Assembly (NCBI GenBank): GCA_964501435.1
Contig: CAZCTH010000009.1
Location: 9,747 to 73,746 of the forward strand
Direction of reading: 5' to 3'
DNA length: 64,000 nt
Origin: an uncultured Spirochaetales bacterium
Lineage (GTDB): Bacteria; Myxococcota_A; UBA9160; UBA6930
Below are positions 2,051-17,775 of this stretch, piece by piece. The translations under genes and the position numbers were made by a program. Every line of letters begins with the position of its first letter. The first letter of the stretch is position 1. Under the pieces are notes generated by a model, which saw only the letters and a program-made list of their open reading frames with translations, was not told the DNA's origin and searched no databases.

Positions 2051-2221
2051 GCTCGGTGGCGTCTTCGCCCCGCTGGCTGCGTTGCGCTGCGCTCGCCGTA
2101 TTTTCAATACGGCTTCGCTTGCGCGCCTTGCCATCGGGGCGAATCCGCTCACCGAGGTCTCGGCGCGGAAGAGTGGGTATCGCGGCCGATCTTCGCGGAC
2201 CCCGACCGGGCCCGGCTTCGG

Positions 2222-2827
2222 TCACGCGGCGGGCAGGTGCTCCTTGGCGACTTCGACCAGTGCCTCGGGGGTGAGCGGGGCGGTCGCGGCGACGGCCCAG
2301 AGGTCGTAGTTCGGGTGGCTGCGCTGCACGGGCAGCACGAGCGGGAAGCCCGCGGCCTGGAGCGAGCCCGTGAGTACGCGCTTCGTGAAGCCGCTCTTGT
2401 GCGCCATGTAGGTCTTGCCGCTCGCGATCGAGTCGCGGTGGCCGTAGAGGATGTCGATCGGCGCGATCGGGCCGGCCGGTGACACGTAGGCGGCGTCGGT
2501 CAGCTGGTCGGCCGCGATCAGCTCGCACACGGACTGGAGATCCGGGCAGGTGATCACGGCGTAGCCGCCGGGCTTGAGGACGCGGCGGAACTCGGCGAGG
2601 GCGACCGGGACCTCGTGCGGGAACAGATGCTCGAGGTTGTGGCTCGAGAACAGCGCATCCACCGAGGCGTCGGCGACGGCGGACATGTCCGTCATCGAGG
2701 CCACGATGTCCGGTTGCGCGGCGGCGTCGATGTCGAGGCGCAGCTCCTGCCAGCCCGGCTGCGCGAAGCCGCGCGTCGTGCCGTCCTTGCGCTTCGATCC
2801 GCAGCCCACGTGAAGAAAAGTCCGCAT
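2222..2827 (-). CDS. Class I SAM-dependent methyltransferase (Methyltransf_11-like)
   Basis: These are the last 201 codons of the 3788-aa minus-strand ORF. ATG (cat at 2825-2827) gives MRTFLHVGCGSKRK.. with a motif-I-like HVGCG and ..LKPGGYAVITCPD... Everything upstream in that ORF is the antisense shadow of the repeat gene. Confidence 0.8.
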   Translation of the reverse strand: MRTFLHVGCGSKRKDGTTRGFAQPGWQELRLDIDAAAQPDIVASMTDMSAVADASVDALFSSHNLEHLFPHEVPVALAEFRRVLKPGGYAVITCPDLQSVCELIAADQLTDAAYVSPAGPIAPIDILYGHRDSIASGKTYMAHKSGFTKRVLTGSLQAAGFPLVLPVQRSHPNYDLWAVAATAPLTPEALVEVAKEHLPAA

Positions 2828-2940
2828 CGCCTTTGCCCTCCCGCGCGCCTCCTCGACGCGGTCCGCTGCGCGCTGGAGACGATTCTCTGCGTCTCGGTGG
2901 AAAAACCTCGCGCGCAGCGGTCTTCGCGCCGCGCCCGTAA

Positions 2941-2962
2941 CAATCTGCAATCCCCCGGCGCA
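2941..2962 (+). promoter_or_regulatory. Bipartite motif CAATCTGCAA-N6-GGCGCA, copy 1 (upstream of the megaprotein gene)
   Basis: An AT-rich 10-mer plus a 6-mer at identical spacing recurs at 17686-17707, in the other divergent promoter region of the same locus. Function is unproven. Confidence 0.3.
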
Positions 2963-3277
2963 GCGGCGACTTGCGCCGCGGCGCTTCCGGCGCACGCCTT
3001 CGCACCTGCTTCGCAGCCCGTGCGTCGCCGCGGCGGCGACAACGCGAATTCTCCGCGCGATCTCGGGTGAATTGCGCAGCGCAAACCGTCTTTTTCCTCG
3101 GTTCCCGAAGTCCGAGACGGCCACGGAGCGCCTCCGTGCGGCGCGAACCGAACGACGCAATTCCGGCCACTCGCGCACTCCGCGAGCTCGGCAGAACGGA
3201 CGCGGCGCGAGGGGGGGACGCACGGAGGGGCGTGAAGTGTTTCGCGTCGGCGGTGGCCGCCGAAGGAGATCTCGACG

Positions 3278-15776: not shown

Positions 15777-17497
15777 CCGGCGGCTCCGAGCGCGGCGGGC
15801 TGGCTCGGCGCAGCCTGCGCGTTGGCGGCGACCACGGCGCGCAGGACGGAGTCCCGCGGCCCGAAGAGCTGCTGCGTCCCGTTCTTGAGGAGCAGCAGCT
15901 TGTCCGCGACGGCGAGCACCGCCGGGCGGTGGGTCACGAGCACGACCGTCGAGCCGCCCGCCTTCAGCGCGACGATCGCGCGCACCAGCGAGGCTTCGCC
16001 GACGTCGTCGAGGTTCGCGTTCGGCTCGTCGAGCACGACGAACGCCGGGCGCCCGTAGAGCGCGCGCGCGAGGCCGATGCGCTGCAGCTGTCCGCCCGAG
16101 AGTCCGGCGCCGCCGGGGCCGAGGCGCGTGTCGTACCCGTTCGGCAGGCGCAGCACCATCTCGTGGATGCCGGCGAGCGCGGCGGCCTCGACCACGCGCT
16201 GGGAGTCGAGCTCGCCGAAGCGCGCGATGTTCTCCGCGACGCTGCCCGCGAAGAGGCCGGTGTCCTGCGGCAGGTAGCCGAGCTGCGGGCCGAGCGCGTC
16301 GCGCGGCCACTGCGCGAGGTCGGCGTCGTCGAGGCGCACGCAGCCCTCGCGCGCGGGCCACACGCCGACGAGCGCGCGGGCGAGCGTCGACTTGCCCGAG
16401 GCGCTCGGGCCGACCACCGCGAGCACGTCGCCGGGCTCGAGCGCGAAGGCGATCTCCGCGATCACCGGCCGCTCCGCGCCGGGCGGCGCGACGGCGAGCG
16501 CTTCGACGCGCACGCGCCCCGTGAGCGGCGGCAGCGCCATGCGCTCGGGCGCCTCGGGGTGCTCGGCCAGGAGGCGCGTGAGCCGTGCGTACGCGGCGCG
16601 CGCGTTAGCGAGCGGCTTCCACGAGCCGATGGCGAGCTCCGCGGGGGCCATCGCGCGGCTCGCGAGGATCGACACCGCGATCATCATGCCGGGGCTGATC
16701 TCGCCTTCGAGCGCCAGCAGCGCGCCGAGGCCGAGCGAGAGCGACTGCCACGCCGTGCGCACGCCGCGCGTCAGCGCCGCGATGCGCGCGCCGGCGTCGC
16801 TCGCGCCGGCCTGCGCGCCCACGATGCGCTGCTGCAGCTCCGCCCAGCGCGCGCGCAGGGCGCCGAGCATGCCCATGGCGTGCACGACCTCGGCGTTCTG
16901 GAACGACGTGTTCAGTGCGGCCGACGACGCCACCGAGAGCCGGTTCGCCTCGGCCATCGGCGCGCGCGTCGCCCACTCGTTCCAGAGGGCGAGCCCCGCG
17001 AGCAGCACGATGCCGGCCAGCACGAAGGTGCCGAGCCACGCGTGGAACAGGAACGCCGCGAGCGCGTAGATCGGGAGCCAGGGCGCGTCGAGCAGCGCGA
17101 GCAGGCCGGGGCCGGTGACGAACTGGCGCAGCGTCGTCAGGTCCGCGAGCGCCTGCGACGGATTCGCGCCGCGCTCGGCGAGGCTGCGCGCGAAGGTGGC
17201 GTCGTGCACGCGCGGTCCGAGCTCGGCGTCGAAGGCGGCGCTCATGCGGATCAAGACGAGGCCGCGCGTCCACTCGAGCGCGGCGCCGAGCGCAAACAGG
17301 CCGAGCGTGAGCCCCGTGAGCAGCGCGAGCGTGGCCTCGCTGCGGCTCGTCAGCACGCGGTCGAACACCTGCATCATGTAGAGCGAGGGCACGAGCATCA
17401 GGCCGTTGATCACGGCGCTGAAGAGCGCGAGGAAGCCGAACAAGCGGCGGTGCCGCAGCAGCGCGGCGTCGATCGTTCGCGTCGGGTCGAACAGCAC
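15773..17497 (-). CDS. Type I secretion system permease/ATPase (short PrtD/AprD/RsaD-like type, no N-terminal C39/CLD domain)
   Basis: 574 aa. A six-helix TMD is followed by an NBD with Walker A GPSASGKST, signature LSGGQLQRIGLARALYGRPAFVVLDEPNANLD and an H-loop VLVTHR. The ORF cannot extend further upstream, so there is no extra N-terminal domain. Confidence 0.9.
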   Translation of the reverse strand: MLFDPTRTIDAALLRHRRLFGFLALFSAVINGLMLVPSLYMMQVFDRVLTSRSEATLALLTGLTLGLFALGAALEWTRGLVLIRMSAAFDAELGPRVHDATFARSLAERGANPSQALADLTTLRQFVTGPGLLALLDAPWLPIYALAAFLFHAWLGTFVLAGIVLLAGLALWNEWATRAPMAEANRLSVASSAALNTSFQNAEVVHAMGMLGALRARWAELQQRIVGAQAGASDAGARIAALTRGVRTAWQSLSLGLGALLALEGEISPGMMIAVSILASRAMAPAELAIGSWKPLANARAAYARLTRLLAEHPEAPERMALPPLTGRVRVEALAVAPPGAERPVIAEIAFALEPGDVLAVVGPSASGKSTLARALVGVWPAREGCVRLDDADLAQWPRDALGPQLGYLPQDTGLFAGSVAENIARFGELDSQRVVEAAALAGIHEMVLRLPNGYDTRLGPGGAGLSGGQLQRIGLARALYGRPAFVVLDEPNANLDDVGEASLVRAIVALKAGGSTVVLVTHRPAVLAVADKLLLLKNGTQQLFGPRDSVLRAVVAANAQAAPSQPAALGAAG

Positions 17498-17685
17498 GCT
17501 CGGGTGGCTCGTCTAGCGCGTCGTCGGCCGGACACGGGCGCCCTGTGCGCCGCTCCGTTCGCCGCAGCGAACGTGAGCCCGGTCACGTCGATCACTCCCT
17601 CGCGTCATCGGAGCGCGCGCGCGCCGGCTGAACGGCCGCGACGGAAAAATCTGCCGGTGCGCTGCCGGCGCACGCGCGTGCATTT

Positions 17686-17707
17686 CAATCTGCAACGCTG
17701 CGGCGCA
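17686..17707 (+). promoter_or_regulatory. Bipartite motif CAATCTGCAA-N6-GGCGCA, copy 2 (between the T1SS operon and merR)
   Basis: Identical 10-mer, spacing and 6-mer as at 2941-2962. A partial extra copy AATCTGCC lies at 17648-17655, with another GGCGCA at 17667-17672. Confidence 0.3.
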
Positions 17708-17775
17708 AAGACGAGTCTTCAGCGACGGAAAATCCACCTGCGCGTGATATAACGGCTGTCTTTCCGGAGGTGCGA

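Follow-up and report, generated by a model that had tools for sequence, protein, structure and literature searches.

How did a set of secretion-related genes come to lie between two housekeeping genes, and how long has it been there? The question is raised by a 64-kb stretch of DNA (the window; G+C ~72–75%) from an uncultured bacterium assigned to Myxococcota_A (contig CAZCTH010000009.1, positions 9,747 to 73,746). In it, the interval 2051–17775, of 15,725 nt, separates ihfA from a merR-family gene and holds five genes and no others, encoding an S-adenosylmethionine (SAM)-dependent methyltransferase (MT), a giant ALTTAQ-repeat protein, a GT41-family glycosyltransferase, and the HlyD-family adaptor and ATP-binding cassette (ABC) exporter of a type I secretion system (T1SS). 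A preliminary description had taken this block to be an insertion into a conserved pheT–ihfA–merR–tRNA-Pro neighbourhood, and its coordinates and gene identities for the flanks and the accessory genes all hold with Pfam, ARAGORN and Rfam. Our comparisons indicate that the block is very probably a single old cassette insertion, made in the ancestor of a clade, inherited vertically and now eroding in some of its descendants.

The wider state of the site was obtained from an IhfA-based scan with one genome per species, which gave 80 loci from Myxococcota, Desulfuromonadota/Geobacter and the Syntrophus group, 75 of them informative, with 700 nt or more of sequence downstream of ihfA. Of these 75 loci, 58 have merR directly after ihfA on the same strand (median distance to the first aligned residue 64 nt, maximum 382 nt), and a tRNA-Pro(GGG) lies within 8 kb in 43 of these 58. 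The ihfA–merR(–tRNA-Pro) neighbourhood is also documented in Pseudomonas aeruginosa (PMC10250203), and the assertion that this adjacency is the normal arrangement is thus borne out. None of the 80 species-representative loci carries homologues of the MT, the giant protein, the GT41 enzyme or the adaptor, nor is there any other cargo between ihfA and merR in them; wherever the site is occupied, this one cassette, whole or in part, is what it holds. Because merR adjoins ihfA in 58 of the 75 informative loci and cassette genes are found in none of the 80, the 15.7-kb block is, as judged from gene order, an insertion relative to a deep ancestral arrangement, as had been claimed.

The history of the insertion can be read from six further lineages that form a clade with the window. 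Their PheT is 79–83% identical to that of the window, as against ~44–56% in the next relatives, their IhfA is 100% identical in L003 and 93–99% in the other members, and the clade has bootstrap support of 94–100% in every gene tested. Presence of the block is patchy among these close relatives, in which full, left-end, remnant and empty states all occur. The complete arrangement is found on one 18-kb ENA contig, seen in two views (L172 and L169), as pheT–ihfA–MT–giant protein (3274 amino acids)–GT41–HlyD–ABC–merR–AAA. Its proteins are 70–89% identical to those of the window (in L169, GT41 79%, HlyD 78% and ABC 84%), and the non-coding DNA at both junctions is homologous, with local alignment scores of 107 and 118 as compared with ~19 ± 2.6 for shuffled sequences. 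The left end is represented by L182, a single contig that bridges window positions 1936–3566 at 90.3% nucleotide identity and carries ihfA, MT and the start of the giant gene, by L174 (thrS–infC–rpmI–rplT–pheS–pheT–ihfA–MT and the giant-gene start) and by L181 (pheT–ihfA–MT). L171, a contig from the sample of L174, has the end of the giant gene, GT41 and HlyD. The MT protein encoded at this position is 85–98% identical in clade members and 76% in the remnant-bearing L175.

The remnant, found in L175–L179 from several lake metagenomes, consists of ihfA, MT, a 143-codon ABC stub and merR. These contigs align only to window positions 1743–2048, 2225–2855 and 17068–18168, so that ~14.2 kb has been lost inside the block, starting at about window position 2856; L175 9325–9879 (also in L176–L178) corresponds to window 17068–17497, that is, to the first 143 ABC codons, which are 75% identical. 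The ABC–merR spacers of the window and L175 align with a score of 52 (shuffle null ~19 ± 2.5). Empty sites are seen in L003 and L006, where IhfA is 100% and 98% identical, respectively, and merR comes 87 nt and 380 nt after ihfA; of their spacers, only the merR-proximal 35–40 nt align to the window. The synteny comparison therefore has two outcomes: the adjacency is conserved in the wider relatives, in agreement with the preliminary description, but close relatives with the same genes between ihfA and merR, which that description had named as evidence to the contrary, do exist inside the clade. Any implication that the block belongs to this genome alone has to be abandoned, given that L172/L169 carry all of it at this site with homologous junctions, that L174, L181 and L182 have ihfA–MT(–giant gene), and that L175–L179 keep the remnant.

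Two further observations concern the same lineages. The MT gene of the remnant lineage is intact; it occurs on over 20 contigs, sampled in several lakes, and may have a use of its own there, apart from the cassette. Between merR and the AAA gene, a gene for a pyridoxal phosphate (PLP)-dependent decarboxylase is present in L175 (7299–8738), L006 (1230–2663) and L003 (2041–2151); it is absent from the window, from L169 and from all outgroups.

The block has diverged in step with its surroundings. For every pair, the nucleotide identity of the block genes falls within the range of the flank genes (overall, block 76–87% and flanks 75–91%), the values being 76–85% and 75–91% for the window and L172/L169, and 78–80% and 69–90% for the window and L175. 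The G+C content at third codon positions (GC3) is 0.95–0.97 in the block, where the flanks average 0.93 (sd 0.03), and the synonymous-codon distance between block and flank genes is ordinary for gene length. The non-repeat part of the block, ~5 kb, is marginally atypical, with a tetranucleotide correlation r of 0.77 as compared with 0.79–0.92 for nine flank chunks, and a GC of 0.746, ~3 points above the 0.70–0.72 of the flanks. The earlier statement that there is no obvious GC shift accordingly survives the compositional test, the tetranucleotide correlation being only marginally low. It is because of this co-divergence of block and flanks, the host-like composition and the homologous junctions that we favour a single old integration with vertical descent thereafter. 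The suggestion that the block may be old is borne out by the junction homology and parallel divergence in relatives with ~80% identical flanks, whereas the suggestion that it was acquired by homologous exchange is neither supported nor refuted, although the equal range of block and flank identity in every pair argues against recent exchange among relatives.

Recent arrival of an island, by horizontal transfer into this one genome or strain, might seem to be indicated by L003 and L006, the two nearest sequences by IhfA, which are without the block. In addition, four same-strain short-read contigs (Logan, SRR142713xx; 99.9–100% identical to the window) end on the left side at 2102, 52 nt after ihfA, in a manner that at first resembled a polymorphism with and without the block. 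The polymorphism was rejected: position 2102 is the apex of a strong hairpin, the next contig begins at 2073 with the k−1 overlap of 30 nt, this 30-mer occurs nowhere else in the window, and in two samples the right junction shows no branching. The left junction is spanned by L182, codon usage is host-like and L175 keeps a remnant, while the block with its homologous junctions in L172/L169, in flanks only ~80% identical, refutes recent arrival, which we regard as extremely unlikely. It could also be asked whether an assembler or binner had joined the block to pheT–ihfA and merR contigs, as the giant gene is highly repetitive and the same-strain contigs break at 2102 and inside the repeats. However, the ABC–merR junction is bridged by two independent same-strain contigs, L086 and L087 (100% and 99.9% identical, spanning 16568–18526 and 17128–18666), the left junction is bridged by L182, and L172/L169 have the whole arrangement on one contig. 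The arrangement is therefore not an assembly artefact, the chance of a misjoin being negligible; the length and repeat number of the giant gene are uncertain, its position is not.

Another alternative sees the ihfA–merR spacer as a recombination hotspot, either entered independently by the cassette in different lineages or exchanged between clade members through the conserved flanks. The patchy presence in the clade (full, partial and empty sites on an unresolved tree) would agree with it, the highly conserved flanks (ihfA 90–96% identical at the nucleotide level) make exchange mechanically possible, and the same neighbourhood borders a known hotspot in P. aeruginosa (PMC10250203). We nevertheless consider it improbable: non-coding junctions that are homologous on both sides amount to one integration event, block identity exceeds flank identity in no pair, and the 80 loci hold no other cargo, their largest ihfA–merR gap being the 382 nt given above. 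That the cassette is instead ancestral to a far larger part of Myxococcota, the adjacency elsewhere being due to repeated deletion, is very unlikely. Deletion at the site does occur, as in L175, but the 58 adjacent loci fall in several phyla-level ‘delta’ groups, the same adjacency exists in Pseudomonas, no remnant is found in any of the 80 loci, and the cassette proteins are 53–76% identical to those of Pseudomonas, above the identity of housekeeping proteins to much closer groups.

Several points nevertheless weigh against a single old insertion inherited vertically, or against parts of this account. L171 (GT41–HlyD) and L174 (ihfA–MT) are tied together by their common sample only, and local alignment detects no relic of the block in the empty spacers of L003 and L006. 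Neither single-gene nor concatenated neighbour-joining (NJ) trees settle the order of the lineages within the clade, the bootstraps of the single-gene trees being below 70%. A concatenated NJ tree places the remnant-bearing L175 at the base, with 65–89% support, in which case L003 and L006 would have lost the block secondarily; the decarboxylase marker groups L175 with these two empty-site lineages, in conflict with the sequence trees. Both branching scenarios require an equal number of events, and the two empty sites reflect either clean loss or branching before the insertion. As regards the cassette itself, a TolC-family gene was found neither in the block nor in the rest of the 64-kb window, and all of its presumed functions, including T1SS export of a glycosylated substrate, are read from family membership. 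Likewise, the presumed donor and direction of transfer are read from distribution and identity, in databases that are rich in Pseudomonas.

The integration itself has left no trace that we could detect. Pfam scans revealed no integrase or transposase domains in the block genes or in the sizeable open reading frames (ORFs) of the window, and the tRNA-Pro 3′ end (last 23 or 33 nt, up to three mismatches) has no second copy in the window, both as stated in the preliminary description. The tRNA-Pro lies behind merR and the AAA gene, and the block is not inserted at its 3′ end. A check of both spacers for att-like repeats, which the description had proposed, gave nothing beyond chance, the 6-, 7- and 8-mers that they share being at chance level (P 0.22–0.77). 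An imperfect 8-nt direct repeat, GCGTCTTC at 2059–2066 and GAGTCTTC at 17713–17720, was considered as an att site or target duplication and dropped in view of this chance-level sharing; the empty sites have one copy similar to it. A repeat search of 1900–18300 was overwhelmed by the giant gene, with its period of 24 nt, and is uninformative on the boundaries. With base composition and codon usage not distinct from those of the host, we concur that the block is not a classical tRNA-linked mobile island. Such an element, of the classical kind linked to tRNA-Pro, does exist in the remnant lineage, separate from the block: at L175 200–6100 (also in L176–L178), the AAA gene and tRNA-Pro are followed by genes for an integrase with an Arm-DNA-binding domain and for a terminase small subunit, together with a gene that has an rve domain.

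On its left the block is bounded by the hairpin downstream of ihfA and on its right by the conserved CGACGGAAA...GTGATATAACGG box upstream of merR (17723–17755), so that both core genes keep their own ends; the GTGATATAACGG box suggests that merR has a promoter of its own. The hairpin region (2045–2225) has a minimum free energy of −95.2 kcal/mol (z −3.2). L182 has exactly the same hairpin sequence despite divergence in the spacer beside it, and seven of its pairs are preserved by double changes with respect to L172; it has no Rfam match. It may be the ancestral ihfA terminator, an idea prompted by a few similar short motifs in L006, but the local alignment is not significant (24 as against a null of 20 ± 2.6). 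Upstream of merR, a motif GCGACGGAAAA occurs twice, ~85 nt apart (window 17634–17735), and once in the empty-site relatives; it might serve to bind a regulator.

Where might the cassette have come from? Its best homologues outside the clade (63–70% identity for GT41, 65–76% for MT) are spread over many metagenomes, and among those with a named source almost all belong to Pseudomonas (GT41 67–70%, MT 71–75%). In 80 metagenome loci found with GT41, whose G+C ranges from 0.45 to 0.70, the ALTTAQ gene is in most cases directly upstream of GT41, and several loci agree with the window in all five genes and in their order. One of these, L089, encodes an MT 72% identical (tblastn), a GT41 enzyme 68%, an ABC exporter 62%, a HlyD adaptor 53% and a giant protein 58% identical in its C-terminal part. 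On the 109-kb plasmid pCC1524 of Pseudomonas asturiensis (NZ_CP047266), genes for a methyltransferase, an ALTTAQ protein, a TPR protein, TolC, HlyD and a T1SS ABC exporter follow one another. Since the cassette proteins are 53–76% identical to those of Pseudomonas, while the PheT of the window is only 31–45% identical to that of non-myxococcal ‘delta’ groups, the simplest reading is that the cassette passed as a unit from one phylum to another long ago. We know of no experimental study of the ALTTAQ cassette, and there was none in the literature that we searched.

We thus propose that the cassette entered the ihfA–merR spacer once, in an ancestor of uncultured Myxococcota that form a clade at the level of a genus or family. 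The source would probably have been a proteobacterial replicon, such as a plasmid of the Pseudomonas type, and entry would have occurred by illegitimate recombination or by means of an element that has long decayed. The cassette would since have acquired the codon usage of its host and been eroded in some descendants, as by the 14.2-kb internal deletion in one lineage. Structurally, this is an ordinary event, a foreign secretion cassette fixed in a spacer between core genes and decayed in some descendants, and it illustrates that the lack of an integrase and of a GC shift can simply mean that an insertion is old. Whether the block is present, partial or absent at the site can serve as a marker in this clade of uncultured Myxococcota, which is poorly known. 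The ALTTAQ/GT41/T1SS cassette appears to be a widespread, conserved unit that moves between phyla, including on Pseudomonas plasmids, and its cargo proteins are of greater interest than the insertion. They pose two testable questions: that of a natural helical-screw repeat and that of a module related to FrpC's self-processing module (SPM) without an Asp-Pro site.

The first question concerns the repeats of the giant protein. The ALTTAQ family PF20080 accounts for 2360 bits over its matches (cut-off 26.4), and the repeats encoded at 3278–11830 comprise ~350 uninterrupted octads, [TS]-A-[QD]-[VIL]-A-A-[LM]-[TSEQ], over ~2800 residues with no register shift. Self-identity reaches 78% at a lag of 512 amino acids, and the large internal duplications are, by their sequence, recent. 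An AlphaFold2 model of 176 residues, computed with paralogous segments as alignment, has a pLDDT of 92.3 and one helix of 5–6 residues per octad. In sequence, the octads match HeliScrew4 (PDB 9ZEM) with an E-value of 1e-10 over 106 residues; a Foldseek comparison of the repeat model with the PDB gave no significant match. The alpha-helical screw of 8-mers has been considered nearly absent from nature, as structural ‘dark matter’ of which there is but one natural example (bioRxiv 10.64898/2025.12.04.691947). ALTTAQ proteins may provide abundant natural examples of it.

The second question concerns the C-terminal module, which is homologous to the SPM of FrpC (phmmer E-value 8e-44 to 6SJW over 165 residues). 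In FrpC, Asp414 is the nucleophile at the Asp-Pro scissile bond (PMC7078468). The residue before the conserved Pro is Ser in the window, and each of the 31 cassette homologues examined has Ser or Thr there, leaving no Asp-Pro scissile site; in the alignment, the equivalent of FrpC D478 is Thr, whereas that of D579 is kept. Canonical clip-and-link chemistry therefore appears unlikely, the scissile Asp being replaced by Ser/Thr and the D478 equivalent by Thr. The giant protein, a presumed T1SS substrate, has an EF-hand-like Ca2+ module near its C terminus; its extreme C terminus (...ELELLV...DLDVF) is conserved only within the clade. A Pfam search found no RTX nonapeptide (HemolysinCabind) in the giant protein, NCBIfam has no model for the MT or for the C terminus of the giant protein, and a literature search on ALTTAQ found nothing.

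The GT41 enzyme matches Xanthomonas XcOGT (2JLB) with an E-value of 5e-98 over residues 110–628; its catalytic domain is preceded by TPR repeats, and it scores 24 bits against an NGT model with a cut-off of 1000. The ABC and HlyD proteins pass the curated NCBI cut-offs for a T1SS of the PrtD/AprD type. From these families, a scheme of function can be proposed. The GT41 enzyme would probably glycosylate the Thr/Ser-rich repeats in the cytoplasm, and the ABC exporter, the adaptor and a TolC encoded elsewhere in the genome would export the giant protein from its C terminus. Outside the cell, Ca2+ would fold the FrpC-like module, and the repeats would form a long solenoid of short helices, serving as a surface fibre or adhesin. 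A literature search for a T1SS linked to an OGT and an adhesin returned nothing relevant. It is tempting, though decidedly speculative and on balance doubtful, to go further and imagine a natural alpha-helical screw fibre of ~2800 residues, decorated by an OGT-like enzyme of its own, exported by a T1SS and ending in an FrpC-like Ca2+ module in which Ser/Thr-Pro has taken the place of Asp-Pro across the whole family, encoded by a cassette that crossed between Pseudomonadota and Myxococcota as a unit. If this were true, the Ser/Thr-Pro module would have to be either the seat of another chemistry triggered by Ca2+ or no more than a folding switch.

The features discussed are collected in Table 1. 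The merR start on record is the ATG at 17776, and a GTG-start version has no exact-sequence match. AAA homologues lie between merR and tRNA-Pro in L006–L019. The intergenic region 2828–3277 contains no ORF with a coding-type GC3 signal, and an Rfam scan of 1–22000 gave nothing beyond the tRNA. Farther along, 3′ of tRNA-Pro and unrelated to the insertion, window 22299–29184 encodes a 939-amino-acid matrixin-type metalloprotease with a PPC domain, a sulfotransferase, both nitrile hydratase subunits and a small dockerin-domain protein.

Table 1. Positions in the window of the block, its flanking genes and the regions between them.
Feature	Coordinates	Strand	Evidence and remarks
pheT, 3′ part	3..1721	+	C-terminal 565 residues; Pfam B3_4, B5, tRNA_synthFbeta, FDX-ACB; left conserved flank
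ihfA	1742..2050	+	Bac_DNA_binding, E 1.7e-32; left anchor of the insertion
Hairpin, 105 nt	2052..2157	+	Between the convergent ihfA and methyltransferase genes; probable two-way terminator
SAM-dependent methyltransferase (MT)	2222..2827	-	Methyltransf_11, E 3.4e-11; leftmost cassette gene
Divergent intergenic region, MT–giant gene	2828..3277	.	Presumed promoters
ALTTAQ-repeat giant protein, 3067 amino acids	3278..12481	+	PF20080, 83 matches; presumed T1SS substrate
FrpC-like Ca2+-binding self-processing-module homologue inside the giant protein	11831..12325	+	phmmer against 6SJW/6SJX, E 8e-44
TPR + GT41 (OGT/SPINDLY-like) glycosyltransferase	12500..14410	+	PF13844, 258 bits (cut-off 25), plus TPR families
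HlyD-family T1SS periplasmic adaptor	14448..15797	-	TIGR01843, 321.5 bits (cut-off 208.65)
PrtD-type T1SS permease/ATPase (ABC exporter)	15773..17497	-	TIGR01842, 692 bits (cut-off 510)
ABC–merR intergenic region	17498..17775	.	Only 17723–17775 (CGACGGAAA...GTGATATAACGG) common to empty-site relatives; remainder belongs to the insertion
merR-family regulator	17776..18177	+	MerR_1, E 3e-18; right anchor
AAA ATPase	18221..19303	+	AAA_22/AAA; conserved right flank in nearer relatives
tRNA-Pro(GGG)	19366..19442	+	ARAGORN; Rfam 59.7 bits; 1.6 kb from the block, not its target

Compared with known systems, the locus recalls tRNA-linked integrative islands in being an accessory block, patchy among relatives, whose conserved surroundings include a tRNA gene; it differs from them in lacking an integrase, an att repeat and a contrast in composition, and in the two core genes that stand before the tRNA. 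The core defence hotspot cDHS1 of P. aeruginosa, with its strain-variable anti-phage cargo (Johnson et al., Nucleic Acids Res 2023, PMC10250203), is sited beyond merR, which is its left-flank marker gene, and not between ihfA and merR. Its cargo varies by strain, whereas here one cassette, the same in every occupied lineage, is found, and the site does not behave as a hotspot of the cDHS1 kind. The designed protein HeliScrew4 shares with the giant protein the 8-residue repeat, the N-cap Ser/Thr, the short helix and the apolar core. The giant protein is natural, with ~350 units and Ala in place of the helix-initial Pro of the design, the likeness being one of sequence and model.

In HMW1/HMW1C of Haemophilus influenzae, a cytoplasmic GT41 enzyme glycosylates a large adhesin that is secreted by the two-partner route. 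The cassette resembles this system in having a GT41-family gene beside a gene for a very large repeat protein whose secretion is predicted, but its enzyme is of the TPR-bearing OGT/XcOGT type, and the predicted route is a T1SS rather than two-partner secretion. With FrpC and ApxIVA (Kuban et al., mBio 2020, PMC7078468), the giant protein has in common that it is large and T1SS-associated, with a homologous Ca2+ module that carries EF-hand-like DxDxDG loops and retains W451, G477 and the D579 equivalent; it departs from them in its Ser/Thr-Pro site, in giving no RTX nonapeptide match and in the position of the module near the very C terminus, after the repeats. The cassette of pCC1524 agrees with the block in genes, order and orientations, its GT41 protein being 70% identical over 90% of the length. 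It has TolC between GT41 and HlyD (L180, 17867–19195), where the myxococcal copies, in the window and in L169, have only ~20–40 nt, and the myxococcal copies are without the C-terminal extension of ~110 amino acids of the giant protein. In contrast to the plasmid-borne cassette, they are chromosomal, occupy a fixed site and show a GC3 of 0.95–0.97.

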